DNA of 64,000 bases from Acidimicrobiia bacterium (GTDB taxonomy: Bacteria > Actinomycetota > Acidimicrobiia > IMCC26256 > DASPTH01). The notes beneath the pieces are model-generated. The model ran no database searches. It was not told the origin of the DNA and worked only from the letters and a program-made list of their open reading frames with translations. The position numbers and the translations under genes were made by a program. The number at the start of each line of letters is the position of its first letter. Positions within the stretch are counted from its first letter, which is position 1. The stretch spans positions 8,136 through 72,135 of the forward strand of contig JAXLRL010000019.1 of NCBI GenBank assembly GCA_046331125.1. Direction: 5' to 3'. This document shows, one piece after another, positions 4 to 64,000 of the stretch.

Positions 4-591
4 GTGCTCGGCGCCGGCGACGCGCAGGCCTCGGTGAAGGAATTCCTCCACCAGTTCATCAAGGGCATCCGGCTCAACAAGGAGCTTCCCGAGCACCACC
101 ACTGGGTCGACGGCATCAACGAGCTGCAGATCCGCGAACGCGAGCACCTGTCGAACGCCGAGCTGGTGGCGCAGCTCGAGACCGTCGGACCGAAGGCGGT
201 GAAGGGGCGCTGGGGCACTCCCCTGCCAATGCGTCACCTGCCCGTCGACTTCGGCCCGCCCGTCGGCTGGAAGCCGTTGAAGTACCTGCTCGACGTCGGC
301 TTCACCCGCGACGTGTTCGCGCACCGCGTCGACATCTGCGCGGCACTCGGCCGCGAGATGGAGGCGACCGCCGAGCACGACGGCCGCCTCGTCGCCGACA
401 TGGTCGGCGAGTGGGGCGACCTGCACTACCTCGCCTACGACCTCGTGCTCACCGGTCCCGCCGGCGGCACCTTCCGCCGCGGCGAGGACCAGCGTGAGCA
501 CGTCGAGATGGACGCCTTCGAATTCGTGCGCGTGATCTCCGGTCGCCTTCCCGACCACGGCATCGTGCGCTCGATGTCACTCCCCCTCTGA
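4..591 (+). CDS. mycothiol-dependent maleylpyruvate isomerase family / DinB-like protein, C-terminal part (5' end outside window)
   Basis: The ORF is open to the window start and translates cleanly (…FTRDVFAHRVDICAALGREMEATAEHDGRL…FEFVRVISGR…). From memory it resembles actinobacterial TIGR03083-type proteins. The next gene's AAGGAG RBS follows it. Confidence 0.5.
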   Translation: MLGAGDAQASVKEFLHQFIKGIRLNKELPEHHHWVDGINELQIREREHLSNAELVAQLETVGPKAVKGRWGTPLPMRHLPVDFGPPVGWKPLKYLLDVGFTRDVFAHRVDICAALGREMEATAEHDGRLVADMVGEWGDLHYLAYDLVLTGPAGGTFRRGEDQREHVEMDAFEFVRVISGRLPDHGIVRSMSLPL

Positions 592-623
592 ACCGTTCGG
601 GCACCACACCAAGGAGCATCACC

Positions 624-1353
624 ATGGACACTCGCGTCGACGAGATCAGCGACGGCATCTTCCGCCTCTCCACCCTCGTGCCCGACATCGGGCCCGACGG
701 CTTCACGTTCAACCAGTTCGTCGTGCGCGGCGAGCAGGAGTCGCTGTTGTTCCACACCGGACCGAAGGCGATGTTCCCGCTCGTGAGCGCGGCGGTGGAG
801 AAGGTCACCCCCCTCGACTCGCTGCGCTGGATCACGTTCGGCCACTTCGAGGCCGACGAGTGCGGCGCGATGAACGACTTCCTCGCCGTCGCGCCCAACG
901 CTCAGGTCGCGCACACCGGCATCGGCGTGATGACGAGCGTGAACGACCAGGCGTCGCGTGAGGCGCTGCCCATGGCGCCCGACACCGTGTTCGACCTCGG
1001 CGGGAAGCGCGTGCGCGGCATCGACACGCCGCACGTGCCCCACGGCTGGGACGCGCACGTGCTGTTCGAGGAGACCACCGGCACCCTGCTGTGCGGCGAC
1101 CTGTTCACGCACCTGGGTGACGGTCCTGCGCTCACCAGCAACAACGTGCTCGACGCCGCGGCCATGGCCGAGGACATCTTCGGCGCCACCGCGCTCACGC
1201 CCAACACCGCACCCACGATCCGCGCGCTCGCCGACCTGCAACCAACGACGCTGGCGATCATGCACGGCTCGTCCTACACCGGCGGCACGCCCCGGGGCGC
1301 TCCTCGCCCTCGCCGACCTCTACGAGCAGCGCCTCCTCTCCCCCGTCACCTGA
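624..1353 (+). pseudogene. MBL-fold metallo-hydrolase (di-iron/ODP-like), one frameshift near 1285-1295
   Basis: The sequence reads cleanly from MDTRVDEISDGIFRLSTLVPD… through HVPHGWDAHVLFEE… to MHGSSYTGG. The long ORF then turns Arg/Pro-rich, while another frame continues ALLALADLYEQRLLSPVT* with its stop at 1353. The shift sits in a CCCCGGGG run. Confidence 0.6.
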
Positions 1354-1844
1354 CGAGGGACGCGCGCAGCTACTTCTCGGCGGTCGCCTTGAAGCGCGGC
1401 GAGGGTGGCGTCGATGCCGTCGCGGGTGTTGTCGACGGTGCCGTCGAGGTAGGCGACGACGTCCATGTCGGGCGCGACGGAGTGCATGAACTCGCCGTAG
1501 CCGGGGAGCACCTGCCACGACTCGGTGATCTTGCAGCCGTCACCTTCCGCCGCGAACGTGTAGCTCCAGCGCACGAGCTCGTGCTGGCCGTCGGTGCCGC
1601 AGTTGATGAAGGTGAACTCCTCGCCGGGGATGTCGGCGACGACACGGCAGTGCGTGCTCCAGCTCATCTCGGGCGTCACGTTGTCGCCGATGAACGTGGT
1701 GCGGTCGTCGTCGGTCCAGTGCGCCGACTTCACGATGGGGCTGAACTCGCCGACGCGAGTCACGTCGGCGACGAGCTCGTACACCGCGTCGGGCGAGGCG
1801 TTGATCGAGATCGAGCCGGAGTGGTTGAACTTCGAGAGATCCAT
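1320..1844 (-). CDS. SRPBCC (cyclase/dehydrase-like) family protein; C-terminal about 15 codons possibly frameshifted
   Basis: MDLSKFNHSGSISINASPDAVYELVADVTRVGEFSPIVKSAHW… is typical of the SRPBCC fold. An alternative frame ends …LKATAEK* at 1370, which suggests a 1-nt indel near 1392. Confidence 0.55.
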   Translation of the reverse strand: MDLSKFNHSGSISINASPDAVYELVADVTRVGEFSPIVKSAHWTDDDRTTFIGDNVTPEMSWSTHCRVVADIPGEEFTFINCGTDGQHELVRWSYTFAAEGDGCKITESWQVLPGYGEFMHSVAPDMDVVAYLDGTVDNTRDGIDATLAALQGDRREVAARVPRQVTGERRRCS

Positions 1845-1873
1845 GGGCGGGGACCCTAGATCAAACGCGCGTG

Positions 1874-2683
1874 TCAACGGCGGGGTCGCTCACCACCGAT
1901 GGTCCCCCGATGCAGCGTGCGGGGCTCGCCGGGTGCGGCGTCGCCGACGGCGCAGTGCTGCGTCGCGATGTTGTCCCAGATGAGGAGGTCACCGACGGTC
2001 CAGTTGTGGCGCCACGTGATCTCGGGGCGGGAGGCCCGCGCGAACAGGTACTGCAGCAGCGGCGCGCTCTCCTCCTCGGTCCACCCCACGAAGCGAGTGG
2101 TGTAGTTGGCGTTCACGAAGAGCGCCTTGCGGCCGGTGCGGTGGTGCGTGACGACGACCGGGTGCTCGGTGGTGACCTGCTCGTGAGTGAGGCCCTGGCT
2201 GCTCGCGAGGGTGGTGCCCTCGTGCACCGCGTCGAGCGGGTCGAGCGTGGCCTTCAGCCCCTCGGACAGCCGCTCGTACGCCTCGTACTCGTTGGCCCAC
2301 ATCGTGTCGCCGCCGCGTGACGGGATCTCGCGGGCGAGCAGGATCGAGGCGAGGGGCGGGTCGGCCATGTGGGTGGTGTCCTCGTGCCACACGGTCGTGA
2401 GCTCGTTGGGGTCGTAGATGCGCATGATCCCCGGGTGCCCCTCGATCGACGGCACGTACGGGTGCACCCGGATCTCGCCCCACAGGCCCGCGAGCTCGAG
2501 CTGCTGCGCCGAGGTGAGGTCCTGCTGCCCGGGCAGGAAGATCACGAGGTGCTCGTCGAGCGCCTCCTTGAGCCGGTCGACCAGCGCCTGGTCGAAGCCG
2601 TCGGCGAGGCGGACCCCGTCGATGCGGGCGCCGAGGGTGCCGCCCAGCGGCGTGACCGTGAAACCGGTGGTCGTGGTCGTCAT
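1874..2683 (-). CDS. TauD/TfdA family Fe(II)/2-oxoglutarate dioxygenase
   Basis: The ORF is intact: MTTTTTGFTVTPLGGTLGARIDGVRL…, a WHEDTTH (HxD iron ligand context), and …LLIWDNIATQHCAV… . The length fits the family. Confidence 0.8.
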   Translation of the reverse strand: MTTTTTGFTVTPLGGTLGARIDGVRLADGFDQALVDRLKEALDEHLVIFLPGQQDLTSAQQLELAGLWGEIRVHPYVPSIEGHPGIMRIYDPNELTTVWHEDTTHMADPPLASILLAREIPSRGGDTMWANEYEAYERLSEGLKATLDPLDAVHEGTTLASSQGLTHEQVTTEHPVVVTHHRTGRKALFVNANYTTRFVGWTEEESAPLLQYLFARASRPEITWRHNWTVGDLLIWDNIATQHCAVGDAAPGEPRTLHRGTIGGERPRR

Positions 2684-2757
2684 GGGCGCCAGCCTCGCCG
2701 GGAGGCGCACATGACGGCCAGGGACCTAGGTCACTTCGTATACAAAATCAGCTGAGT

Positions 2758-3599
2758 TCAGCCGGGCAGCGGGAGGTTCTCCGCCCCGCCGACGATCATC
2801 GCCGCGAACTCGGTGAAGTCGGGGCCGGCGCGGAGGCTGTGGCCGCCGTCGACGTTGATGATCTGGCCGGTGATCCAGCGCGACTCGGCGCCGAGCAGGA
2901 AGCGCACGAGATCCGCGACATCCTCGGGCTCCCCCACGCCGTTCATGGGCGTGTTGCGGATGTAGCTGTTGTAGACGGAGCCGTCGCGCGGGACGTTCTC
3001 CATGATCTCGGTGGTGATGAAGCCGGGGCGCACCGCGTTGAAGCGCACACCGACCGCGCCGTACTCGTCGGCCGCGTTGCGGATGATCTGCTCGAGCGCA
3101 CCCTTGCCCGCGGTGTAGGCGCCGAACCAGCGGTGGGTCTGGTGGCCGGCGATCGACGACATGCCGACGAACGAGCCCTTCGACGCCTGCAGACCTGTAG
3201 CGCGATAGCCACGCACAGGAAGGTGTGCCGGCTCGGCGTTGAGCTCGAGCACGACGAGACTCGTCGGTGTCGGAAAGGGCGTAGGGCGCCATGCCGCCGC
3301 CACCGTTCGCGACCACACCGTCGAGCGTGCCGGTGGGCTCGGTGGCCGCGGCGACGGCGCGACGTCGTCCTCCTTCGTGACGTCGCCGACGACGTAGCGG
3401 ATGCTGCCGCCGTTGCCGCGAGCTTCTCGATCTTCTCCGCCGGCACGGCGAGGATGGCCTCGGTGCGGCCGCAGATCGTGACCGCAGCGCCGTCGGCCGC
3501 GGCCTGGGCCGCGCAGGCGGCGCCGATGCCCATACCGCCGCCGGTGACGAGCACCCCGGTCCCCTTGAGTCCGCCGGAGGCTTTCCTGGTCGCGGGCAT
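2758..3599 (-). pseudogene. SDR family oxidoreductase, at least 3 frameshifts
   Basis: The start MPATRKASGGLKGTGVLVTGGGMGIGAACA carries the TGxxxGIG motif. YTAGKGALEQIIRNAADEYG (YxxxK), NAVRPGFI and ITGQIINVDGG lie in other minus-strand frames. Confidence 0.65.
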
Positions 3600-4919: not shown

Positions 4920-6612
4920 GTGTCCGAAGAAGTCACCCGCCAGCTGCCCGCTCTCGACGACCAGAACACCTTCTTCTGGACGTCGGGCGCCGACGGCAAG
5001 CTCCGCATCCAGCGATGCTCCGACTGCGGCGAGCTGCGCCACACGCCGGCGCCGGTGTGCCCCTACTGCCGGTCGTTCGAGTGGGCGCCGGCCGAGGTGG
5101 CGGGGACGGGCACCATCGTCGGCTTCACGGTCAACTACCACCAGTGGATGCCCGGCTTCCCGCCGCCGTTCGTGCTGGGCCTCGTCGCGCTCGACGAGGA
5201 CGACCGGGTGCGCCTCACCACCAACATCGTGAACGTGCCGCTCGACGACGTGTTCGTGGGCCAGCGCGTGCAGGTGCTGTTCGAACAGCAGGAGGACGTG
5301 TACTTCCCCGTCTTCGAGCCGACCGGCGAGACGGACTCGGCGGGGAAGGCGGTGGAGGGTCCGATCCCGCACGAGGACCCGCTCGTGCGCCAGGTGCGCG
5401 CCATGCCCAAGGCGGGCGACAAGTTCGAGGACAAGGTCGCGATCACCGGCATCGGGATCTCGGAGACCGGCCGGCGTCTCATGCGCGAGCCGATCACGTT
5501 GACGGTCGAGGCCGCGCTGCGGGCGATCGAGGACGCCGGGCTCACCATCGACGACATCGACGGCCTCGCCACCTACCCGGGCGGGCTGTCCGCGGCGAGC
5601 GGCATGTCGGAGGGTGGCGTGCAGGCGCTCGAGGAGGCGCTGCGCATCCGCCCCTCGTGGCACCACAGCGGCATGGAGACGCCGGGCCAGACCGGCTCGG
5701 TGGTTGCCGGAATGCTCGCGGTCGCGGGTGGCCTGTGCAACCACGTGCTGTGCTTCCGCACCGTCACCGAGGCCACCGCGTTGGCCAAGGCGCGCGCGCA
5801 GGCGCCCGGCACCGGAAGCGCGGCGGCTGCGATGTACACGAGCAAGCGCATCGAGGGCGACATGGCGTGGCGCCTCGTGTACGGCGCCGGTTCGGCCGCG
5901 AACTGGATCGGCATGATGGCCAACACGCACTTCAAGCTCTACGGCACCACGCGCGAGACGCTGGGGTGGATCGCGCTCAACGCCCGCAAGAACGCGGCGC
6001 TGAACCCGCTCGCCATCTACACCGACCCGCTCACGATGGACGACTACCTGAGCGCGCGCATGATCAGCACGCCGTTCGGTCTCTACGACTGCGACGTGCC
6101 GATGGACGGCGCGGTCGCGGTGATCGTGTCGCGCAAGGACATCGCCGGCGACCTGCGCCAGCCGCCGGTGCACGTCGAAGCCGTCGGCGCAGGTGACCGA
6201 GCGCATCTCCTGGGACCAGGGTGTGGTCGACCACGAACCGCTGGTGATCAGCAGCGCGCCACGTGTGGACCTGCGACCTACCCCGACGACATGCAGTTAA
6301 AACCGCGGCTACCACGACGGCTTCTCGTTCAACTGCCTCACCTGGCTCGAGGAGGCCTCGGGTTCTGCGGCACCGGTAGGGCGAGGACTTCCTCGAGGGC
6401 GGGAAGAACATCGCGCTCGACGGGAAGATCCCGCTCAACACCCACGGCGGCCAGCTGTCGGCCGGGCGTCTCCACGGCTACGGCTTCCTGCACGAGGCCG
6501 TGCTGGCCCGGCGATCCAGGCCAGCCGCGGCAGATCCGGCGCAGGTCGGCGTCGTGAGCAACGGCGGCGGCGCACGCCCGGCAGGGCGATGATCCTGAAG
6601 GCGGCGCGCTAG
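4920..6612 (+). pseudogene. fused DUF35 (Zn-ribbon/OB-fold) + thiolase-like (SCP-x/lipid-transfer type) protein; 3' third frameshifted
   Basis: An SD (GGACGAGGAG) precedes the GTG at 4920. The DUF35 segment reads RCSDCGELRHTPAPVCPYCRS…GTIVGFTVNY and the thiolase segment reads VAITGIGISETGRR…LYDCDVPMDGAVAVIV. After about 6190 the similarity continues in other frames (YHDGFSFNCLTWLEE, IPLNTHGGQLSAGR, HGYGFLHEAV) to the TAG at 6610-6612. Confidence 0.65.
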
Positions 6613-6616
6613 CGCG

Positions 6617-7650
6617 TCAAGGGCGCCAGTCCACCGGCGAAGAACGCCGACGAGAACTCGGCGAGCGGGTGGCGCGGCTGAAGCGGTGTCGTAGCCAGGC
6701 GCGTGGGTGGTCGTCGGCGGTGATGCCGACGGGAACGAGATGCGAACACCTTGTCGTCACCCGCCGAGCGATGCGTTGAGCGCGAGGCGGCCAGTTCCCC
6801 GTGCCGCGCAGCTGCGACGCCACGCCGACCTTGCCGTTGGCGCCCACGCAGCAACTGGTCGGCGCCCCGGAGCAGGTACAGGTCATGCAGGCGCGCGCCA
6901 CCACCGCGCCGCCGAGCGCACCGTCACCGGGTTGCAGCAGCACGATCCACCGGGTCGCCCTGCGCCGCGACGTCGACCCGGACCGCACGGGTGGTCGTGA
7001 CCACCCACAACGAAGCGGCCGTCGGCGGCGAGGTCGGTGAAGCTGTTCGGGTCGCCCGTGCCGAACGACGGCGCCGCGACCTTCCCCGTGGCCGGGTCGA
7101 CGACGTGCACCTGGATCACTCGGCCGCTGGCTGCCACGACCACACGACCACCGGCAACGACGACCATGTCGGCGACGTCGGGGTTGCTCGAGGTCGCTGT
7201 CGGTGTCGATGCGCCGCACCACGCGCTGCGAGCCCGGGTCGTACTGCACGAGCGTTCCCGGCGACGGGACCAGCCACAGGTCCCGCGCCAGGCGCCAGGA
7301 AGCAGGCGCTGCGTGGTCTGCGTGGTTGGAGCCACCGGGGCGCCGCGGAGGCGCACCACCTTGCTCGTCGCGGTGTCGTAGTACCCGACCTGGCGGGTGC
7401 CGGGCTCGTACATCCACACCTTGCCGGGCGCCCCGACGACGGAGCCGAAGGCCGTGCCCGCGACGGCGCGTGCCGACGAGCGACAGGGAAGCGGCGACGG
7501 TCTTCGAGCCGAAGACCACACCTCATCACGGGCGACCGGTTCGTCGCCGCCCGAGCCGCCGAGGTTCACGGCGACGATCAACGCCCCCACGAGGGCTGCA
7601 CCAGCTTGGCGCGAGGATCGTCTGGCGACGGTCGAGTCCCCACAGGCGGT
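6617..7650 (-). pseudogene. degraded hypothetical exported/anchored protein with repeated beta-strand-like segments; boundaries approximate
   Basis: Three fragments lie in different minus frames: VWMYEPGTRQVGYYDTATSKVVRLRG, LWLVPSPGTLVQYDPGSQRVVRRID and VVVAGGRVVVAASGRVIQVHVVDPATGKVAAPSFGTGDPNSFTDLAADGRFVVGG. A hydrophobic anchor (AGAALVGALIVAVNLGG) precedes them. Confidence 0.3.
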
Positions 7651-7729
7651 GGGTGAAGCGGCGGGCACCGGTCCAGTGTGCTCGCGGCGAGCGGCACCTC
7701 CCGGGCAACGGGCGTGCGTTGATCCGCCG

Positions 7730-8475
7730 ATGAGTGAACGGTTCGCAGGAAGGTCGTGATCGTCACCGGCGGGCACCGGCACTCGGTCTCGCCTACGCCG
7801 AGGGCTTCGCCGCGCGAGGGGCGTGAGCGTGGTGCTCGCCGACATCGACGGCGACGCCGCGCAGGCCGCGGCCGAGCGCATCGCGGCGACGGGTGCACGG
7901 GCGATCGGCACGGCCACCGACGTCGCCGACGAGGACTCCGTGCGCGCCATGATGCGCGGCGGCGGTCGGCGCGTTCGGCGTGGACGTCCTCGTGAACAGC
8001 GCGGGGCTCCACCTCGGCAAGTACAACTCGACGACTCGACCTGCCGATCGCCGACTGGCGCCGCATCTTCGACGTGAACGTGCTGAAGCGGTGATCTGCT
8101 CGCGCGAGGCGCGCGTCGATGGCGGCGCGGTGGCGGCGTGATCCTCAACCAGGCGTCGGTCGCGGCCTGGGTGCGCGGCCGGCTCGTACAGCGACGAAGC
8201 CGGCGCTCACGAAGGCGTGACGATGTCGCTCGCGAGCGAGCTCGCCGGCGACGGCATCCGGGTGCTGGCGGTGGCGCCGGAAGCGTTCATGTCGACGGTG
8301 CAGGCCGGCCTCGAGCCGCACAACAAGGAGCTGGTGCTCACCGGGTCAGCTCACGCAAGGAGTTGGGGACCCCCGACGACCTGTGCCGCGTTCGTGCTCT
8401 TCCTCTGCTCCGACGAGGGTCCTTCGCCGCGCGACCACCTGCGCGTTCGGCGCGGGCTTCTCGAAGCGCATCTAG
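7730..8475 (+). pseudogene. SDR family oxidoreductase, multiple frameshifts
   Basis: Recognisable segments are spread over three frames: MSERFAG.VVIVTGG, VVLADIDGDAAQAAAERIAATGARAIGTATDVADEDSVRAMM, VDVLVNSAGLHLGKY, MSLASELAGDGIRVLAVAP and FVLFLCSDEG. Confidence 0.55.
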
Positions 8476-8486
8476 TCTCCTCGCCG

Positions 8487-8890
8487 ATGCCCGAGCTGAA
8501 CTACACCTACGAGCCCGAGGACAGCGAGTTCGCCTTCATGGAGGGCGGCCGGGCCGAGGCGCGCTGGACGCCGTCGGCGAAGTGGGGCAACCCGGTGGGG
8601 AACGTGCACGGCGGCTACGTCGGCGTGATCGTACGACGTGGCCGAACCCAACGCTCTACTCGCTCGTCAACGTCGTCCCCGACGGTGTCGCTCCAGATCG
8701 ACTACGCCTGCGCATGATGCCGCTCGGCGTCACCTACACCGTGCGTGGTGGTGGTGCGCGGGCAAGGCCACCGCCATCGTCGACGTCGACGTGTTCGATC
8801 CCGACGACGTGCTGGTCGCCGCAGGAAGGCGTACTTCCAACTCCCCAGTTCGTGGCGCGAGAGGAACGAGAAGAAGGAGAGCCAGCGATG
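8487..8890 (+). pseudogene. PaaI/hotdog-fold thioesterase, frameshifted
   Basis: MPELNYTYEPEDSEFAFMEGGRAEARWTPSAKWGNPVGNVHGGYVGVIV carries the GNVHGG motif, after which the frame breaks. VSLQIDY and GKATAIVDVDVFDPDDVLVAAG lie in other frames. The TGA stop overlaps the next ATG (ATGA at 8887). Confidence 0.5.
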
Positions 8891-9374
8891 ACCGACCCGA
8901 ACCAGGAGCTCCTGGACCACATCGGCGTGACCCGCCTGCAGCAGGCCTACGCCGACCTGGCCAGCCGACGGGCGTGGGACGAGCTCGACCAGCTCTTCCT
9001 CCCCGACGCCGAGATCGTGATCGCGGTCGGTGGCGGCGACACCATCGAGTGCACCGGGCCCGAGCCGTTCGGCGCGTTCGTCGGCCCGTCGGTCGACCAG
9101 TTCGACTTCTTCGAGTTCGTGATCCTCAACACGCGCATCGAGATCGTTCGGCGGCGATCCCGACGCCCGCCGCCGCGCATGTGGTGTGCGAGCTGCGCCA
9201 GTGGGCCGACTCCGGCCGTTGGAGCGTCGCCTACGGCCTGTACCAGGACGCCTACCGCCGGGTCGACGGCCGTTGGTGGTTCGCGCGCCGCGACTACCAG
9301 TCGCTCGCCCGCACGTCGCTCGACGGGCCGCGGTCGCTCGAGAACTTCCCGTTCCGCAGCAGTACAAGTTCTAG
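8887..9374 (+). pseudogene. SnoaL/NTF2-like family protein, one or two frameshifts
   Basis: A GAAGAAGGAGAG RBS precedes the start. The sequence reads MTDPNQELLDHIGVTRLQQAYADLASRRAWDELDQLFLPDAEIVIAV…FDFFEFVILNTRIEI, then shifts to …WSVAYGLYQDAYRRVDGRWWFARRDYQSLART. Confidence 0.5.
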
Positions 9375-9384
9375 GAGCAGTCAC

Positions 9385-10160
9385 GTGGAGGACTTCACCG
9401 GCAAGGTCGCGATCGCCGGCACGCCAACCGCGCGCGGCATCGGCCTCGCCGTTGCCGCCGCCTGGCCCGGGAGGCGAGCGTGGTGCTCACCGACCTCGAC
9501 GGCGACGGTGCCTTGCGGAGGATGCGCGGGCGAGCTGCGTGCCGAGGCTACGACGCCGCCGCGTTCCAGGCCGACTTCGGCGACTACGCGTCGGTCCCGC
9601 TGCGCTCGCCGGCGGTGTACGCCCGCTACGGCAAGGTGCACGTGATCCACGTGGTCCCCATGGCGCCCACGGGCCTGCCGGGTCACGGCCTGCTCAACGC
9701 CCGCCGATCCCGGCGCAGTCGGGACGTCACGATCCGGGTGAACCTGCTCGCGGTCTACGGCATCAAGGCGTTCGTGCCCCTTGATCGCGGGCGGTGAGCA
9801 CGGGCACGTAGTCGTCGTCGATAGACGACACCGGCACGATGTACGGCAACGCCCCATGCCGTCAGCAAGTGCGCGCAGGTGAGCCTGATGGAGTCCTGCA
9901 CGGCCAGTTGCGCGACGCCAACGCCGACCTCGTCGCCACTGTCGTGTTCCCCAGCATCGGCCGCCAGCAATGCCACCGACGAATTCGCATAGGGCACCGA
10001 GTCCCTGATCCGCGCCACCGCCTTCGCCGGTGCCGTGTTGATGACGCCGCGGAACGTACTTCGTTGCACCACGGGCGATCCGCGGCGCGACGCTCGTTCT
10101 GCAGGCGCATCCGACGCTCGAGGACGACGAGCGGCTCACCGGCGCAGGCGCACCGCTCAG
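9385..10160 (+). pseudogene. SDR family oxidoreductase, heavily frameshifted; 3' end uncertain
   Basis: An AGGAG lies 8 nt before the GTG at 9385. FTGKVAIAG..ARGIGLAVAAA, ASVVLTDLDGDGA, AVSKCAQVSLMES (remnant of YxxxK) and LVATVVFPS are found in shifting frames. Confidence 0.4.
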
Positions 10161-10284
10161 TGAACGCGACATCTGGCGCACCCGTCTCGGCGCGATGGTC
10201 GCCCGCTCGGCCGTCGGCGTACTTGTGGGGCCCGCCGAGCAGCGTCCTGGGTCCGTCCTGACAGGGTGCTCTGGCCTCGCCGGC

Positions 10285-11917
10285 ATGACTCAGGCTGGCG
10301 ATCTCCTCATCCAGGGCGGCACCGTCGTCGACGGCGCCGGTGCCCCCGCCGCGCGGCCGACGTGCGCGTGCGCACCGGCAAGATCGTGGAGGTCGGCCCC
10401 GGCCTCACCCCCGACGGCGAGGAGGTGCTCGGCGTCAGGCGCGCTCGTCACCCCCGGCGGCTTCATCGACCAGCACACCTCGACCCATGCGCGTTCTTCG
10501 ACCCGCGTGCGACCCGCGGCCCCCAGCACGGCGTGACCACCGCGATGGTGGGCAACTGCTCGCTGTCGCTGTTCCCCGTGAACGACAGGCAGCGACGACA
10601 TCGCCGACGTGACCCGCGTTCGTGGAGGACGTCCACCGAGATCCTCACGGGATCCGTGCCGTGGACGTGGACCGACTGCGCGGGGTACCAGCGCGCTGCT
10701 CGACGGTGGACTCGGCCTCACTTCGCGCGCTCATGGGCCACTCGCCGCTGCGCGTCGTGGTGATGGGTGACGCCGCGTGGGAAGGCGCGCCCATAGCGCG
10801 GAGGAAGCGCCGCCGAGATGGCGGCGATCTCGCGGAGAGCGATGCGCCAGGGAGGCGTTCGGGCTGTCGACGTCGTTCTTCAGCAGGACGCCAGGGGCGG
10901 CCGGTGCCGTCGCGCAACGCCGATGTCGCGAGGAGTTCGCCGCGCTGTTCGACGTGATCCAGGCCGGCCGCGGCTTCGTGGAGTTCGTGCCCAGCCTCAC
11001 GGGCGAGGGACCCGCAGGTCGCCATGCGCATGCTCGCCGAGCTGGCGAGCGAACAGGGCATCCCGATCCCGCGTGGACCGGCCGCGGTGACCGCGGCCCG
11101 CCCACCGCCACCGACCGCTGGCTCGAGTTCCGCGAGCTCAGGCCGAGGGCATCGAGATGATCCGCAGCTCTCGCCGCACCGTCGACTTCCGCATCAACTG
11201 GGACAGCTCGATGATGTTCATGCCCTTCGTGCAGGGGTGGGCCAAAAGCTCATCCAGGCGCAGGGCGCCGGCGCGAAGCTCAACCCTGGTGAAGGACCCC
11301 GAGTGGCGCACGGCAGCCGCGAGGAGTGGGACCGTGTCGACAAGGCGATGTTCCCGAACTGCGCGTCTCGACGTCGTGAAGATCGTCGAGATCAGCAATC
11401 CGCCGACGAGCAGTGAGCAGGCCAGAGCCTCGCCGACGTCGTCGCCGCGCGGCGGTCACCGTCCGACGTGCTCGCCGACCTCGTGCGCGACAACGGCGGC
11501 TACCCGGGCGTGGTCGTGCAGGGCATCGCCAACAGCCCGAGCATGCGCCGACAAGGTCGCCGCGGTGCTCGCCGATCCGACGTGATCGTGCGTCTCGGCG
11601 CAGGCTTGCACGTGCAGATGCTGTGCGTCGGGCGACGCACGCTCGTGCTCACGCGCCACGTGCCGAAGCGCGGCGACTTCACACTCGAGCGTGCGATCCA
11701 CGAGCTCACCGGTCGCCAGGCCGACACGTTCGGGTTCCGCGACCGCGGCGCACGATCACCGAGGGCCTCGCCGCCGACCTCGTGGTGTTCGACCTCGACG
11801 AGCTGCACTGGGACGTCGAGGAGTTCGTCGCCGACCTCCCCGGCGCGCGCTGCGCTTCCGCCGCCCCGAGGGCGGCCTGCTGGCGGTGGTGACGGCGAAG
11901 TTCGTGCAGCGCGGTAG
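10285..11917 (+). pseudogene. D-aminoacylase / N-acyl-D-amino-acid deacylase-type amidohydrolase, heavily frameshifted
   Basis: Recognisable segments are distributed over three frames: MTQAGDLLIQGGTVVDGAGAPAAR, DVRVRTGKIVEVGPGLTPDGEEVL, HGVTTAMVGNCSLSLFPV, LTGSVPWTWTDCAGYQRA, ALMGHSPLRVVVMGDAAW, ERAIHELTGRQADTFGFRDRG and GLAADLVVFDLDELHWDV. Confidence 0.55.
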
Positions 11918-12231
11918 CCAGCTGCAGGCGTGCTGCCGGGCACCGTGTCGGCATCAACGTGGGGTGAAGCGGGACCAGTGCCGCTGGTGCCGCGGATGAG
12001 CAGAGCATCGTGGTGTCGCAGCACGCTTCGTAGGCCGCAACTCTTGCAGAAGGAGTCGCAGGTGACGGACGACACTCCGCCGGGTCATCGCCAGGCCGAT
12101 CAGCACAGCTGACGCCCACGAACCCTCGACCATGACGCGGCAACGCCACTGCGGCAGGCCGCGAAGAACGAGTTCACGGTGCGCCCCCGTTGGTCGGTGT
12201 GCACGCAGGAACATCCGAATCACCAGCGCGC

Positions 12232-12256
12232 GACGCCCCGGAGGGTCCGGGGCGTC
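12232..12256. terminator. perfect 11-bp stem / 3-nt loop hairpin at the 3' end of the DUF998 gene
   Basis: GACGCCCCGGA-ggg-TCCGGGGCGTC overlaps the minus-strand stop codon (12255-12257). There is no U-tract, which is common for actinobacterial terminators. Confidence 0.45.
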
Positions 12257-12871
12257 ATCGCGTCCGGGTCTGCTCCATGAGGGCGACGCCGAAGCCGACG
12301 AGCCACAGCACCGGATAGACGGCCAACGCTCGACGCCCCCCACGCCGAGCGCCGCGGGGCCGAAGTCGAAGACGTCGGTGCCGAGCACCATCGCGACGAC
12401 GAGACCGCGCCGAGGACGACGCCGAACCACCGGTAGGGCCGCGGACGACTTCAGGCGGAGATCGCCGCCACGCGCGGCCACGAGGCCGTAGGCGCAGAGG
12501 TGGTGCCCTGGCAGCACGTCACCCGGGAAGATCCCCATGCCCACCAGCCCGATCGCGGCGACCGCCAGCGCGGCGACCACGGTCCGGTGGCCCACCGCGA
12601 GCGCGAGGTGCGCGGCCCCGACCAGCAGGAGCAACCCGGCGCCGATGGTGAGGACCACGAACAGGGCCCGTGAGTCGGCGAAGACGACACTGTGGGGCGG
12701 ACGCGTGCCGCCCAGGTCGCTGATGGTGTTCTGCGCCGTCGTGAAGCGCCGGGGGTAGAGCGCCTCACCGGTGATGATGCCCATGAAGGTGGCGATGCCG
12801 GTGACGGTGAAGACGGCGCCGGCCACCCGTCTCGCCCGGGCCTTCCGGGTGACCGTGGTGACCGTGGTCAT
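12255..12871 (-). pseudogene. DUF998-like integral membrane protein, at least 2 frameshifts
   Basis: MTTVTTVTRKARARRVAGAVFTVTGIATFMGIITGEALYP…NTISDLGG…LFVVLTIGAGLLLLVGAAHLALAV… is followed by frame breaks. VVAMVLGTDVFDFGPAALGVGGVERW and LVGFGVALMEQTRTR* lie in other frames. Confidence 0.5.
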
Positions 12872-58939: not shown

Positions 58940-59280
58940 GTGGACATCGTGGGCGGTTCGGGCTCCGCCGACGAGGGGCCGACGTCATGAACCGGTGCAC
59001 CGGATCCGCTTCCACGCGTCCGGCCCGGAGAATTGGAGAGCACTTAGCGAGTTGAGCGGACTGCTTCAGGCACAAGGCATGCAGGGACCCGGAGCGGTGG
59101 CAGTGCGACGCAGATTCCCACGGATTCTGAGCTCTTTTCCCACGCCTCCGCCCAGGCTTTCCCACGACCAGACCGCCGTGCGGTCTGGGGCGCACGGACC
59201 GTCAGCACGGCCTCGTTGGGCGGTGAGGAACCAGGCTTGCCCCTGACCTGCGGGCGCTTGGTCGCCGATACGCTTCGTTC

Positions 59281-59451
59281 ATGACATTGCGACAGGGTCA
59301 TGGCCCGTACACGCGCCCAATGCGGTGTGAGGCGTGCGATGAACGCTTCTCGGCACCGGGCGACGGGGCCGGCGCAGCGTACGACGAGGTCCATTGCCCG
59401 GCGTGCGGATCGGCACAGTGCGTCTGGATCTGGGAGAACGAGGACCGTTAG
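59281..59451 (+). CDS. possible 56-aa zinc-ribbon protein (below the 60-aa cutoff of the supplied ORF track)
   Basis: My own translation: MTLRQGHGPYTRPMRCEACDERFSAPGDGAGAAYDEVHCPACGSAQCVWIWENEDR*. It has two CxxC pairs 25 residues apart. No convincing SD is present, and the start could be the internal Met. Confidence 0.3.
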   Translation: MTLRQGHGPYTRPMRCEACDERFSAPGDGAGAAYDEVHCPACGSAQCVWIWENEDR

Positions 59452-59547
59452 CACAATCCCATTAGCTCGCAATGCCCAGGAGCAGCGAAACCCTCGCCGG
59501 CAATCGGACGCGTGTCCCTACCCTGAGAGGCGGACGAGGAGGCGAGG

Positions 59548-61233
59548 GTGGAAGCGGAACGGGCAGCTGAAGTCGCACGGCTCTTGGACGAAGCCGCACT
59601 TCAGGAATGGGACGACAACGTCGCCGTGGCAATCGAACGATTGCTTCCCGATGATGACGGCGCCGCGCTCGGACTGGCCTTCCGCTTCTACGTCTCGCAG
59701 GAGGACGGCAGCCGCCATCGCTGGCGTCCGCTCTTGCGCGTTGACCCGAACGGCAATCAGGTCGAGACCGGTCTGGCCGACCTCGACGAACCCGTCATCC
59801 GCACTTGGGAAGCGGTCGTCAGTCTCGCCGTGCACCCGCGCGTCCGCGCACGCCTTCATGATCTTCTGTTCGAACGACGCTCTGGTGACGTCGGGGCGCA
59901 CGCACGCGAGGCGATCAACAGCTATCTCACGGTCGCTCTCACGCCGAGCTCGACCGTCGCGGAAGTAGACGCGATCACGCGAGCCTTCGACTTGATCGCA
60001 CTCACCCGCCAGCCGGACTTCCTTCCCGAGGCCACCAACGCTGCCATCACAGCCGTCGATGGCGCCTTGGCGTCCACGGACGCCAAGCCGGGCGTGTCCT
60101 TACGAATCCTGGAAGTCCTCGTCGATGCCCGCATCGCGGACGGGCGTGTCGACGACCGACTCCTGCGCTGTCGCACCGCTTATCCCGACCAGTGGAACAC
60201 CGAGCACACGATCGGCCTACAGCTCCGCAGAGAAAGCGACGAGGGCGCTCGAGCGGAGCTGCAACGAGAACGGGTGCTGGCTCTATTCACCGAAGCCGAC
60301 GCTTCAGAGCCCATGGTTGCCGTGTCTCATCTCGCGCGCGCCGCGGCGTTGGCGAGAGAGCTCGCAATCTCGGACCTGCACGAGGAAGCGGTCAGGAGAT
60401 TGCAGGGCGTCGATCCGACCAGCCTTTCCATGCACCGCATCGAAACGCCGATCGAGATCCCGCGAGCCGAAATCGAGGCCTACCTCGACCAGTTGCTTGC
60501 AGCACCAACCTGGCTCGAGGCGGTCGTCAGCCATGTCCTCGCGGGACCACCAAGCGGCAACGTGCACCGCAACCGTGCCACCGTTCAGGAGCTCACGTCC
60601 GAGTTCCCCTTGCAGAACTTGTTCCCCACCGTGCGAGTCGGCGCTGATGGGCTGCCCCGATCCACCGCCGAAACTCCGGAGGAGCGCGCCGAAGCGAGTC
60701 TCGCTAACCATGAGGTAATGGCGATGCAACTCAGCGCGATGGTGCTCGTCGAACTGCTCGAGCGCGCAGGGGTGAAGTTCGGAGAACCGCGGCCCGAAGA
60801 TCTCGCCCCAATGACAGAGCACGCAAGCCACGTCGACCAGGCGACTGGCGATGCCATCGCTCGGGTGATCCGACGCTTCTACCAAGCCGATCCCGAGGCT
60901 GCGGCGTACACGGGCATCCCGCTCATCGAGCGACTCACCCGCAACCTCCTGCTCCAGCTGCGGGTCCCCTTGTTCCGTGTCGAGCGGGACAACAAGCCCG
61001 GCCAGTACCCCGGGATGGGTGCGCTGCTCCACGAGCTCGGCCGTTCCGGTCTGGATCCCTCCTGGCATCGGTACCTGTACGTGCTCCTGGTGGCACCGCA
61101 CGGCTTGAATCTCCGCAATGAAGCGATGCACGGCTTCGCTCCCGAGCTTGGCGCTGGCCATGCGGCGCTGGTGATCGCCGGGTTGCTGTACCTCGCAGTC
61201 CAGACCGTTGGCCCGGTAGGTCACGATGGGTGA
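59548..61233 (+). CDS. 561-aa alpha-helical protein of unknown function with C-terminal HEPN-like R-N-x3-H-G motif (resembles DUF4209-type proteins from memory)
   Basis: A strong SD (GAGGAGG) lies 6-8 nt before the GTG at 59548. The ORF is uninterrupted in a lower-GC region with less GC3-biased codons. The motif LNLRNEAMHGF (R523…H528, DNA 61114-61131) is followed by a hydrophobic helix. No P-loop is present. Confidence 0.65.
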   Translation: MEAERAAEVARLLDEAALQEWDDNVAVAIERLLPDDDGAALGLAFRFYVSQEDGSRHRWRPLLRVDPNGNQVETGLADLDEPVIRTWEAVVSLAVHPRVRARLHDLLFERRSGDVGAHAREAINSYLTVALTPSSTVAEVDAITRAFDLIALTRQPDFLPEATNAAITAVDGALASTDAKPGVSLRILEVLVDARIADGRVDDRLLRCRTAYPDQWNTEHTIGLQLRRESDEGARAELQRERVLALFTEADASEPMVAVSHLARAAALARELAISDLHEEAVRRLQGVDPTSLSMHRIETPIEIPRAEIEAYLDQLLAAPTWLEAVVSHVLAGPPSGNVHRNRATVQELTSEFPLQNLFPTVRVGADGLPRSTAETPEERAEASLANHEVMAMQLSAMVLVELLERAGVKFGEPRPEDLAPMTEHASHVDQATGDAIARVIRRFYQADPEAAAYTGIPLIERLTRNLLLQLRVPLFRVERDNKPGQYPGMGALLHELGRSGLDPSWHRYLYVLLVAPHGLNLRNEAMHGFAPELGAGHAALVIAGLLYLAVQTVGPVGHDG

Positions 61234-62344
61234 CGCCCCGGAGCTGCCCTGGATCTGTGCGCTTCCGTACTTGCCGGTTCGCGAGCCGGTGGAGTTCGCG
61301 GGCTGGTGGCTTGGGCCGGTCACAGCATTCGCAGGACCGTGGCGTGACCCACAGTTTCACGATGCCGTTGGCGAGTTCCTCGACAGCTTCCGCACCGCCA
61401 GCGGCCAACCGGTCAAGAAGCCTGCGTTGCTCGTTCGCCGAGAGACGGGGGCGAATGGCGTTGCGCCGACCCTCGCAGAGTTCCACGCGCTCGAGCTTGC
61501 GATCGGCTTGGCCACCATCGACGCGAATGCGTTCTGGAGCCCCGAGAACGAGCAGGACGGCTACCGCATCGCGACCGCCGATAACGCGGACCTGTGGGTG
61601 CAAAGCATCGACGTGGAACACCGGCGCATCACGCTCGAGCGGGGACTTCGGGTTCGAACCATTGCGGGCGGCCACCGGATCGGGACCGACGACTTCTTCA
61701 TCCCTGCACCGCTCGAGTTGCACCTGCCATCCGGTGTTGGACTGGATGCCGACGTCCTCGAAGCCGTCTACCGCACCGCACTCGAGCAGGGAGACGAGCC
61801 TCGTGCCGAGGCTGTTCTGGTCGCCATCCGCTGGTTGTTGAAGACGTGGCTCAACTCGACGAGCGTGTCGATCGAGGATCGCATCGTGCTGCTGAAGATC
61901 GCGTCCGAAGCGCTCACCGGCAAGGACAAGACCCATGAAGGTGGCGCGCAGCTGGTCGCACTGTTCGCCTCAGCTGGGGAGCAACCGGGTGAGGGCATCG
62001 GCACCGACGGGCTGCTGTGGCAACCGGACGAGCGGCGGCTCAAGCGGGTCTGGTCCAATCGCAGCGGCGAGAAGAGTCACTCCGAGCTCACGCTGCTCGA
62101 ACACTGGTACGGCGCACTGGGAGATGCCCGCAACAAGATCGTGCACGAAGGCGGAGCCTCGTCACTCGTCTACGAGGAAGACTCGCCGTACGCGGGGCCG
62201 TTCGTCGAGATCGGTGATCGCGTCATCCGGGAAGCGATCACCGTGGAGCTCGGGAACTTGGGCTACCCCGCCGTCTGGCGGCGTGGACTGACGCGGGCGT
62301 CGTTCCGCATGTGGGAGCGGCTCTCTGCAGGAGACGTCGAGTAG
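61226..62344 (+). CDS. 372-aa protein of unknown function with HEPN-like R-N-x3-H-E-G motif
   Basis: The ATG overlaps the upstream stop by 8 nt (ATGGGTGA). The ORF is uninterrupted. The motif reads LGDARNKIVHEGG (R302…H307, DNA 62129-62146). I did not recognise the N-terminal about 280 aa. Confidence 0.65.
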   Translation: MGDAPELPWICALPYLPVREPVEFAGWWLGPVTAFAGPWRDPQFHDAVGEFLDSFRTASGQPVKKPALLVRRETGANGVAPTLAEFHALELAIGLATIDANAFWSPENEQDGYRIATADNADLWVQSIDVEHRRITLERGLRVRTIAGGHRIGTDDFFIPAPLELHLPSGVGLDADVLEAVYRTALEQGDEPRAEAVLVAIRWLLKTWLNSTSVSIEDRIVLLKIASEALTGKDKTHEGGAQLVALFASAGEQPGEGIGTDGLLWQPDERRLKRVWSNRSGEKSHSELTLLEHWYGALGDARNKIVHEGGASSLVYEEDSPYAGPFVEIGDRVIREAITVELGNLGYPAVWRRGLTRASFRMWERLSAGDVE

Positions 62345-62541
62345 CCCATCATGGGGTGGTCACAGTGCGCGCGCAACGTGCAGCCCACCCGGACTTGACG
62401 AAAGATCCATTCGCGGCACGCCCGCTCCCCCGCTGCCGTGCCGGCCACGCTGCGTGAGCAGCAGCGCCCGGCGGGCCGTGTCGACCGTGGCGGGACGGTG
62501 GCCAGGGTGAGGCTGTCGCAGCCCTGTCGTAATGTCCAGTC

Positions 62542-63384
62542 GTGGCCGCTATGGGAACGTTACGCATCGCTACCTGGAACCTCAGATGGAGTGGCGGCGC
62601 TGCGACCGTGGAGCGAGAGGCCGACTTGCTCGCGTCGAGCGACTGGGATGTCGCGCTGCTCCAGGAAGTGAATTCGAAGGCGTGGGCTGCTGTGTCCAAC
62701 CTCGAGCGCGTCAGTGGAGCAGTCAGTGCCTTTGACGACGGGTTCCCAACGTTGGACGGAAAACGGCCTCATGGCGTCGCCCTGCTCGTCCGCGATGGAC
62801 TCGCCCTGACCGATCCCGAACCGCTCACGGGCTTGCCGCGCCCTGGCCGTGGCATGGGTGCGACCGTCGAGGGCTGGGATGTGCCGATCAGCGTCTGCAG
62901 TTGGCATGCACCGAACGCCGCGGCCAGCGGACCAGCGATCAAGATGCAGGGCTACCTCGCCTTCCTCGGCTGGATTGCCCGTCAACGAGCGGCGACCGTT
63001 GTCGGGTTCGATTCGAATCACTGGGAGACGAGCACCGAACTCGACCTGACCTGGCCGAGCGATCCAGCCCACGGCTGGTATCTCGAGCAGCGATTCTTCG
63101 GCGCCACTCCGCCTCACGGTCTCCGCGACGCGTACCGCGATTACTTGCGATCGAACGACGCCGAGTACCGACGGCTTCGTGAGACGCTGCCTCCAAACGG
63201 TCCCCTCGCGATCACCTACACCCGAGGGTCGAAACAGCGACCGACACCAGACCGTTTTGACTACGTGTTCATCTCCGAGGATTTCAAGTGCGCTGGCGTC
63301 GATCATCGATACGACGCATCTCTCGACGCGGGAAGTGACCATGCACTCGTGATCGCCGAGCTGGCCCTCGCCGGGTCCAAGTGA
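62542..63384 (+). CDS. endonuclease/exonuclease/phosphatase (EEP) family protein
   Basis: LRIATWNLRW (N), ALLQEVN (E), GFDSNHW and the C-terminal GSDHALVIAEL (D-H) match the EEP catalytic blocks. The start is GTG 62542 or ATG 62551. A TAATGT hexamer lies 6 nt upstream of the GTG. Confidence 0.8.
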   Translation: MAAMGTLRIATWNLRWSGGAATVEREADLLASSDWDVALLQEVNSKAWAAVSNLERVSGAVSAFDDGFPTLDGKRPHGVALLVRDGLALTDPEPLTGLPRPGRGMGATVEGWDVPISVCSWHAPNAAASGPAIKMQGYLAFLGWIARQRAATVVGFDSNHWETSTELDLTWPSDPAHGWYLEQRFFGATPPHGLRDAYRDYLRSNDAEYRRLRETLPPNGPLAITYTRGSKQRPTPDRFDYVFISEDFKCAGVDHRYDASLDAGSDHALVIAELALAGSK

Positions 63385-63436
63385 TCGCTGCCGCATGCGC
63401 ACCGACGAGTCCTCACAGCACGGTTAGGGTCCCGAC

Positions 63437-64000
63437 GTGATCGAGTACACGGAAGGGATGGCCGTCGACGATCAGTTCGAGCTCGTGGACCGGCTTGGAG
63501 CTGGTGGCTTCGGCACCGTCTTCCGAGCTCGGAACCGCCTCGACGGACGCGACTACGCGATCAAGTTCGTCAAGAGCGACGATCCAGATGCAGTGCGACG
63601 AGAGTTCGCACCGCTGCGAGCGATCGATCATCCGAACATCGTCAAGGCGCACTGGGCAGCTCGCACGAAGGACGGCGTGTGGTACATCGCCTTCGACCTG
63701 GTCGAAGGCACGCGGCTGCGCGAAGAGATCGAGGTTGCGGGGCCGATGCCGACTCTGAGGGTCGCCGAAATCGGCGATCAGCTGCTCGATGCGTTGGCGG
63801 CGCTGCACCCTGACGAGGAGCGACTTGCCGCACTTCACAAAGGCACCATGACCGATGGCGAGTACGAGGAGCGTCAACGCATTGAAGCAGCGGGTCTCGT
63901 CCACCGCGATTTGAAGCCCGAGAACCTCATCCTCTGCGAGGACAACACCCTCGTACTCGTTGACTTCGGCATCGCGTCACGCGCCGGCACACGTCGCGTC
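63437..64000 (+). CDS. Hanks-type Ser/Thr protein kinase, N-terminal catalytic domain (3' end outside window)
   Basis: This ORF is not in the supplied track because it runs off the window end; I translated it myself. It carries GAGGFGTVF (G-loop, 63497-63514), YAIKF (Lys codon 63563-63565), HRDLKPEN (63902-) and VDFG (DFG, 63962-63970). An in-frame TAG lies at 63425-63427. The start is GTG 63437 or ATG 63458. Confidence 0.85.
   Translation, partial: MIEYTEGMAVDDQFELVDRLGAGGFGTVFRARNRLDGRDYAIKFVKSDDPDAVRREFAPLRAIDHPNIVKAHWAARTKDGVWYIAFDLVEGTRLREEIEVAGPMPTLRVAEIGDQLLDALAALHPDEERLAALHKGTMTDGEYEERQRIEAAGLVHRDLKPENLILCEDNTLVLVDFGIASRAGTRRV

Follow-up and report, generated by a model that had tools for sequence, protein, structure and literature searches.

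At the 3′ end of a 64,000 nt stretch of contig JAXLRL010000019.1 from an Acidimicrobiia bacterium (assembly GCA_046331125.1), hereafter the window, two neighboring genes on the + strand encode a 280 aa metal-dependent phosphodiesterase/nuclease with the endonuclease/exonuclease/phosphatase (EEP) fold (62542-63384) and a Hanks-type Ser/Thr kinase, which runs off the window after the first 188 codons of a 478 aa protein (63437-64000). Upstream of them, on the same strand, lies a pair of HEPN-motif genes (59548-61233 and 61226-62344). An initial annotation of the sequence had proposed that the EEP enzyme and the kinase, together with this HEPN-like pair, could make up a four-component sensor-effector module. 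Our analysis supports neither this nor a two-component module and leads to a different picture, which we hold with moderate confidence: the EEP and kinase genes are two independent, individually transcribed genes that stand beside a third unit, the HEPN-motif pair, in a horizontally acquired, defense-island-like patch.

The window is GC-rich (about 71%), and all four genes are contiguous and lie in a patch of lower GC (65.2% for positions 59001-64000 vs 70.9% for 1-59000), in agreement with the low-GC, intact island described initially; GC at third codon positions is 0.72-0.80 in the patch vs about 0.88-0.95 in most flanking genes. Both values point to horizontal acquisition of the patch. The genes 5′ of 59 kb are ordinary or of unknown function (e.g., a DsbA-family protein, a periplasmic binding protein and a flavoenzyme) and include neither an integrase nor a tRNA gene, and a search of the 58-64 kb region for tRNA genes, Rfam matches, meaningful repeats and att-like sites returned none. 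Apart from minor points on the hexamers, the initial description is accurate, and the EEP and kinase genes had been correctly placed on one strand. The 197 nt gap separates the second HEPN-motif gene from the EEP gene; the spacer between the EEP and kinase genes measures 52 nt.

The EEP gene encodes a genuine, intact EEP phosphodiesterase that falls outside all named subfamilies. The protein matches PF03372 over its full length (E 8.9e-11), and the catalytic blocks first read from the sequence are all present (W12-N13-L14, Q41-E42-V43, S158-N159-H160-W161 and S265-D266-H267). In an alignment of 51 family members, N13, Q41, D157, N159, D240, D266 and H267 are invariant and E42 is nearly so; both the fold, a four-layer alpha/beta sandwich, and the catalytic set (N, E, D-x-N, D, D-H) are those of the EEP superfamily. 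The alignment also reveals a conserved family signature, SWHAPNA. An AlphaFold2 model of the protein (pLDDT 95.9) superposes on TDP2, LINE-1 endonuclease, APE1 and ANGEL2 with TM of ~0.65 at 14-22% identity, and a search of PDB sequences with the family profile returned ExoIII and APE1 as the best matches (E 2e-11 to 1e-6). The nearest characterized relatives act on nucleic acid, and the enzyme most likely cuts or trims nucleic acid.

Its likeness to ExoIII, APE1 and TDP2 extends to the same catalytic residues and to WHAPNA, whose WHAPN lines up with Y-x-P-N in enzymes of the ExoIII type. Apart from the low identity, what sets the family described here apart is a solitary, patchy distribution in defense islands, unlike that of a conserved repair gene; against the Xth equivalog (TIGR00633) the protein scores 20 bits, far below the cut-off of 99.05. 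Relatives are rare, 55 having been found in 5.8 billion protein clusters, nearly all of them metagenomic, and PLSDB plasmids gave no match to the protein.

The protein deposited at NCBI for this gene (P0001, 258 aa) begins 22 codons 3′ of the GTG at 62542, leaving out 62542-62607 and with it the invariant W12-N13. Because the catalytic N13 is lost, the NCBI start call is probably wrong. Some relatives are longer rather than shorter at this end: in five of them (P0015, P0017, P0019, P0023 and P0027) columns 1-110 of the alignment A1 show some 90 extra N-terminal residues, among them a conserved LTWxxxGxxLGxLLG motif, and the window protein has no such extension. Two diverged paralogs of the family occur on one metagenomic contig (L008, 344-1300 on the − strand and 6509-7441 on the + strand). 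A further relative, in a Solirubrobacteraceae genome (L007, 9941-10799), is split across two overlapping open reading frames (ORFs), which suggests a frameshift or a pseudogene.

The kinase ORF starts with the GTG at 63437 and remains open to position 64000. The fragment inside the window matches Pkinase (E 2.3e-25) and carries GxGxxG, AIK, HRDLKPEN and DFG, a complete set of motifs for the Hanks-type kinase that had been called from the sequence. Its C-terminus, noted initially as lying beyond the window, was recovered through an exhaustive HMMER search of 1.84 billion representatives: MFN8027352.1 (P0211) has 478 aa and is 100% identical to the fragment over residues 1-188. Since this accession comes directly after the one of the EEP protein (MFN8027351.1), and both belong to one contig of 77,861 nt, the kinase gene is intact; its end is predicted near 64873, past the last position of the window. 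Taken whole, the protein matches Pkinase (PF00069) with 112 bits, as a Hanks-type Ser/Thr kinase.

Together with P0211, a subfamily of 10 representatives was delimited among the best 150 matches from the 1.84 billion. The other nine share 37-44% identity with it over the aligned whole protein and 45-52% within the fragment. The subfamily alignment shows no variation at G23, K43, E56, H156-R157-D158, K160, N163 and D176-F177 and hardly any at G26 and G178, and a helical insert of two helices (~25 residues) is found throughout between the helix ending in HPD and the HRD loop. The C-terminal domain is equally characteristic, with invariant GP-x-x-C, LN and Q-x-E-x-x-G-x-GQ-x-x-KTV. In the structure model of the kinase (pLDDT 81), residues 330-397 form three helices and a beta hairpin at pLDDT >90, followed by a helical tail, and on this predicted secondary structure the C-terminal domain would be winged-helix-like. 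It has no match in Pfam or among PDB sequences. A fold search with the whole model returned matches to the catalytic domain only, which superposes best on PknB and also on Stk1 and CHK1, as expected of any Hanks kinase. Three members of the subfamily are longer at the C-terminus: the extension of P0221 matches DUF6416 (Pfam) and that of P0222 aligns with it, and the extension of P0223 does not align.

A word-index search with the fragment retrieved generic kinases only, at no more than 39% identity; PLSDB plasmids likewise gave generic kinases that left the C-terminal domain uncovered, and no member of the subfamily was found in the viral contigs scanned. With 478 aa, neither PASTA nor transmembrane region, and 109 bits against the PknB-PASTA model (NF033483, cut-off 450, kinase domain only), the protein is not a housekeeping PknB-type kinase, a possibility that the initial annotation had raised against its own proposal.

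The named family that scores best with the kinase domain is MAD6, the kinase of the methylation-associated defense system MADS (NF047741 and PADLOC mad6; 157.9 bits and 140 bits). The value of 157.9 bits comes from model positions 487-608 only, lies far below the cut-off of 460 and is not accompanied by a NERD domain. The next-nearest representatives outside the subfamily, P0219 and P0232, are of the MAD6 type, having NERD and two kinase domains and scoring above the cut-off. Their match to the window fragment is unbroken and runs across the helical insert that precedes the HRD loop, and it is with their second kinase domain that the window kinase aligns. Compared with MAD6, the latter thus consists of the second kinase domain, without NERD and without the first kinase domain, and its C-terminal domain does not match that of P0219 and P0232; no other mad genes occur in the 64 kb of the window, that is, on the side upstream of the kinase. 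PglW, the kinase of BREX type 2/Pgl, is similar in its kinase region (94.7 bits, NCBIfam cut-off 990) and in being defense-linked, standing beside a methyltransferase in its own system. It differs in size (1391 model positions vs 478 aa), and no pglX, pglY or pglZ was seen here. Several PADLOC models of PD-T4-6, listed with no cut-off, match at up to 140 bits over the catalytic domain only; generic kinases would match them too. By its sequence, the protein is a compact relative of defense kinases with a C-terminal domain of its own, and neither a PknB housekeeping kinase nor a member of MAD6 or PglW.

Gene neighborhoods were compared for 28 loci harboring EEP relatives and as much as 10 kb of flanking DNA on either side; exact look-up supplied three of the loci, genomes of GTDB species four and metagenomes the remaining 21. 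Searches of these loci with the four window proteins (phmmer) returned EEP relatives only, with no relatives of the kinase or the HEPN-motif genes. A hidden Markov model (HMM) of the kinase domain, built from 145 representatives, found no kinase in any of the 28 at E ≤ 1; the same HMM did detect the kinase of the window and the related ones in L031-L033. An all-vs-all comparison of the neighboring ORFs revealed no conserved neighbor across the 28 loci, the shared items being antisense shadows of the EEP genes and near-duplicate contigs only, and none of the loci is syntenic with the window. A DsbA-family neighbor common to the window and L001 was considered as a sign of synteny and rejected, the only ORF besides the EEP gene in which the two match being one of the short-chain-dehydrogenase type, at 33% identity and a distance of 21 kb.

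The kinase gave the same result from its own side. At the four other sites of its subfamily no EEP gene is annotated, and where DNA could be read, at three of them, it contains nothing related to the EEP or HEPN-motif genes. At the site of the closest relative (P0213, 52% identity; L031), a divergent DUF726 gene lies upstream and a complete type I HsdM gene starts 14 nt after the kinase, followed by a 344 aa HsdR remnant (8001-12732), with MazE/PIN and PemK toxin-antitoxin genes nearby; the site looks like a decaying restriction-modification (R-M) system in a defense island. The other kinases are preceded by a 529 aa ORF of no named family that ends 28 nt upstream (P0214; L033), by a pP_pnuc_1 nuclease gene 198 nt upstream on the same strand (P0217, with an HTH_17 gene and a TrwC relaxase gene downstream) and by an Xre helix-turn-helix fragment 392 nt upstream (P0220; L034). 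Three sites with relatives of the second HEPN-motif gene likewise have no kinase, one of them having an EEP gene 3.3 kb away. Altogether, the four-gene combination is found at none of 35 other sites. The EEP gene does not recurrently co-localize with the kinase gene, with or without the HEPN-motif pair, and the co-localization of homologs on which the initial annotation had made its module depend was absent from every sample drawn.

What the EEP loci do share is the nature of their surroundings. The 101 ORFs that flank EEP relatives in 15 loci matched 93 PADLOC families (E ≤ 1e-5), vs a single, generic match among the 57 ORFs of the first 59 kb of the window, which served as control. Because of this enrichment, the EEP family is to be regarded as a frequent resident of defense islands. 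The families concerned include mREase_II, AbiEi/AbiEii, ThsA, HmaC, RT-NERD-helicase, DEDDh, mad3, PDC-S01, PDC-S11 and PDC-S48, and Pfam adds two GmrSD_N proteins. An apparent PD-T4-6 match near one EEP relative was provisionally rejected as a kinase, the kinase-domain HMM having found none in these loci, and the matches of neighboring ORFs to kinase-containing proteins run through non-kinase parts (repeats, NERD, a PglW-type C-terminal domain). One such case is a partial ORF beside an EEP relative (L011, 1-432, − strand), which runs off its contig and matches only the C-terminal domain, residues 1345-1405, of the 1406 aa P0254, a protein with a kinase domain of the same kind. The defense context of the kinase subfamily is anecdotal, consisting of the type I R-M and toxin-antitoxin genes of L031 and the relaxase and nuclease genes of the P0217 contig. 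The defense flavor that the initial annotation had sensed is supported by the neighborhoods of the EEP relatives, by the kinase domain being nearest to defense kinases and by the upstream genes with their invariant R-N-x3-H motifs, the first of which is the DUF4209/PDC-S39 gene.

Leaderless transcripts are common in Actinobacteria, and sequence signals at the locus point in that direction. The hexamer TANNNT is rare in the window (26 copies on the + strand and 48 on both strands of the 64 kb, a frequency of 0.0004 per position), and in ~20 of the 48 copies the start codon of an ORF longer than 120 aa comes 5-8 nt later; this pattern is that of leaderless transcripts, which seem to be the rule in this genome. 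A hexamer scan placed one -10-type copy, TAATGT, at 62530-62535 (+ strand); it stops exactly 6 nt short of the GTG that opens the EEP gene, which predicts a leaderless start at ~62542. Another, TAGGGT, at 63425-63430 (+ strand), ends exactly 6 nt before the GTG of the kinase gene and predicts a separate leaderless transcript. The first HEPN-motif gene has TACCCT (59519) 23 nt upstream, along with a GGAGG Shine-Dalgarno sequence. Given the -10-type hexamers at leaderless distance before the EEP and kinase starts, the simplest reading gives the EEP gene and the kinase gene a promoter each, distinct from that of the HEPN-motif pair. The TAATGT had been noticed before, in combination with a TTGACG given at 62393. 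The latter is actually at 62395, 129 nt upstream of TAATGT, so the two hexamers do not form a -35/-10 pair; a scan for consensus sigma-70 promoters found none, and a promoter of this type was rejected. The signature itself (TANNNT, 6-8 nt, start codon) helps to fix start codons and transcription units in this genome.

The HEPN-motif pair forms the third unit. According to Pfam, the 561 aa product of the first gene (59548-61233, + strand, from the ORF list) contains DUF7380 and DUF4209; it has an R-N-E-A-M-H motif and matches the PADLOC candidate PDC-S39. A published analysis (PMC3710099) counts DUF4209 among the HEPN families and records it in operons related to R-M systems. The second gene (61226-62344, + strand), whose 372 aa product belongs to an unnamed family, overlaps the first by 8 nt, which suggests that the two are translationally coupled. 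It has 35 homologs, and R302-N-x3-H307 is invariant in an alignment of 28 sequences. Elsewhere the second gene keeps other company: on the same strand upstream of its relatives lie a SIR2_2 gene in L029 (region 325-3467) and a gene for a 537 aa protein of no named family in L030 (region 6241-9176), the latter site having Tn7-like transposition genes (Mu-type transposase, TniB, TniQ) downstream. With DUF4209 HEPN, SIR2_2 and the 537 aa protein alternating in the upstream position, the second gene looks like a constant partner of swappable effectors. A third relative (P0196) shares its island with NERD, RES-Xre, integrase and McrBC genes, and the EEP gene 3.3 kb off, mentioned above, is separated from it by four genes.

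Four explanations can be weighed against these observations. That all four genes form one sensor-effector module is very improbable. Their shared strand, contiguity and similarly low GC fit such a module, as does the one island where an EEP gene occurs 3.3 kb from a relative of the second HEPN-motif gene; against this, the combination recurs at none of the 35 other sites, a promoter-like hexamer sits in the 197 nt spacer before the EEP gene and another before the kinase gene, relatives of the second HEPN-motif gene have the SIR2_2 or 537 aa genes upstream instead, and PDC-S39 is modeled alone in PADLOC, its "S" presumably standing for single-gene. We also consider it unlikely that neither gene is related to defense and that both simply lie in a variable region; the kinase would then be a Ser/Thr kinase with an ordinary regulatory role, and the EEP enzyme a phosphatase or an AP endonuclease of the DNA-repair type. 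The best PDB matches of the EEP profile are indeed the repair enzymes ExoIII and APE1, the catalytic domain of the kinase superposes best on PknB, and the neighbors in L001 and L003 are mostly metabolic. However, the EEP protein remains far from the Xth cut-off (20 bits vs 99), the two families are rare and patchy (55 EEP relatives; 10 kinase representatives in the best 150) with no synteny, the neighbors of the EEP family are strongly enriched in defense genes, and the kinase, closest to MAD6 and with neither PASTA nor transmembrane region, lies in a patch of lower GC.

A two-gene system composed of the EEP enzyme and the kinase is a somewhat less remote candidate, which we nevertheless regard as rather unlikely. 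The kinase with its C-terminal domain would be the conserved sensor and the upstream gene an interchangeable nuclease effector (EEP here, the restriction-fold pP_pnuc_1 elsewhere, the 529 aa protein in a third contig), which the kinase would activate or license by phosphorylation. The 52 nt gap on one strand with no terminator-like site speaks for it, along with the alike GC and third-position GC of the two genes, the nuclease gene 198 nt upstream in the P0217 contig and the ORF ending 28 nt before the kinase in L033. Kinase domains are, on the other hand, present in 0 of 28 EEP-family loci, P0213 has a divergent DUF726 gene upstream and L034 only an Xre fragment, 392 nt off, and the window kinase has its own -10 hexamer at leaderless distance; the comparison covers five kinase contexts. 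Extended to its full consequence, namely that kinase and C-terminal domain are the constant sensor of an undescribed two-gene class whose swappable nuclease is phosphorylated upon detection of phage nucleic acid or protein, the idea is a speculation that we do not expect to hold.

We therefore retain the reading of two independent genes, and several points weigh against it. No terminator-like site was found in the 52 nt spacer, and since the two genes are so close on the same strand, read-through from EEP to kinase and thereby co-expression is possible. Three of the five sites of the kinase subfamily have a same-strand gene 28-198 nt upstream, two of these being nucleases (EEP and pP_pnuc_1), which fits a kinase with a swappable effector. 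The EEP protein is without a PADLOC match, and the defense role of both genes is argued from guilt by association. The context samples are small, with five sites for the kinase subfamily and three for the second HEPN-motif gene, and the view of the locus ends at position 64000.

Within the reading of two independent genes, the EEP product would be a cytoplasmic Mg2+-dependent phosphodiesterase. Because its family is solitary in ever-changing, defense-rich neighborhoods, the gene is a candidate stand-alone nuclease-type defense or conflict gene. The kinase may be a single-protein sensor-kinase of the Stk2/PD-T4-6 kind: its C-terminal domain would sense an invader-derived cue, upon which the kinase could phosphorylate cellular or phage proteins and stop the infection. 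Gene integrity, folds, catalytic residues, the lack of conserved linkage, the defense-rich surroundings of the EEP family and the promoter-like hexamers are shown by the data, and the substrates, trigger and defense role are, for both proteins, what we infer. Staphylococcal Stk2 and PD-T4-6, single-gene Ser/Thr-kinase anti-phage systems, resemble the window kinase in being single cytoplasmic proteins of the ~450-500 aa class with a non-kinase C-terminal part and changing neighbors. They differ from it in that the matches of the PD-T4-6 models end at about residue 300, the C-terminal domain not being common to both, and in that the present family comes from Actinomycetota-type metagenomes and is known from sequence.

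With the tempting four-gene system dropped as unsupported, two testable candidates remain. One is an EEP nuclease-like family that occurs as a solitary gene, is not covered by PADLOC and has its relatives among defense genes; the other is a small family of MAD6-related Hanks kinases whose C-terminal domain is undescribed and, judged from its predicted secondary structure, winged-helix-like. Should either protect against phage on its own, it would be a new single-gene system from the poorly explored Actinomycetota/Acidimicrobiia, and the kinase, if the proposal is true, would offer a compact model for infection sensing by defense kinases.

Just 5′ of the HEPN-motif pair, a 56-codon ORF (59281-59451, + strand) encodes two CxxC pairs and shows a weak zinc-ribbon match (Zn_ribbon_8, E 9e-4). 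With a TACGCT hexamer (59269) ending 6 nt ahead of the ATG, this ORF is probably a genuine small gene with a leaderless transcript.

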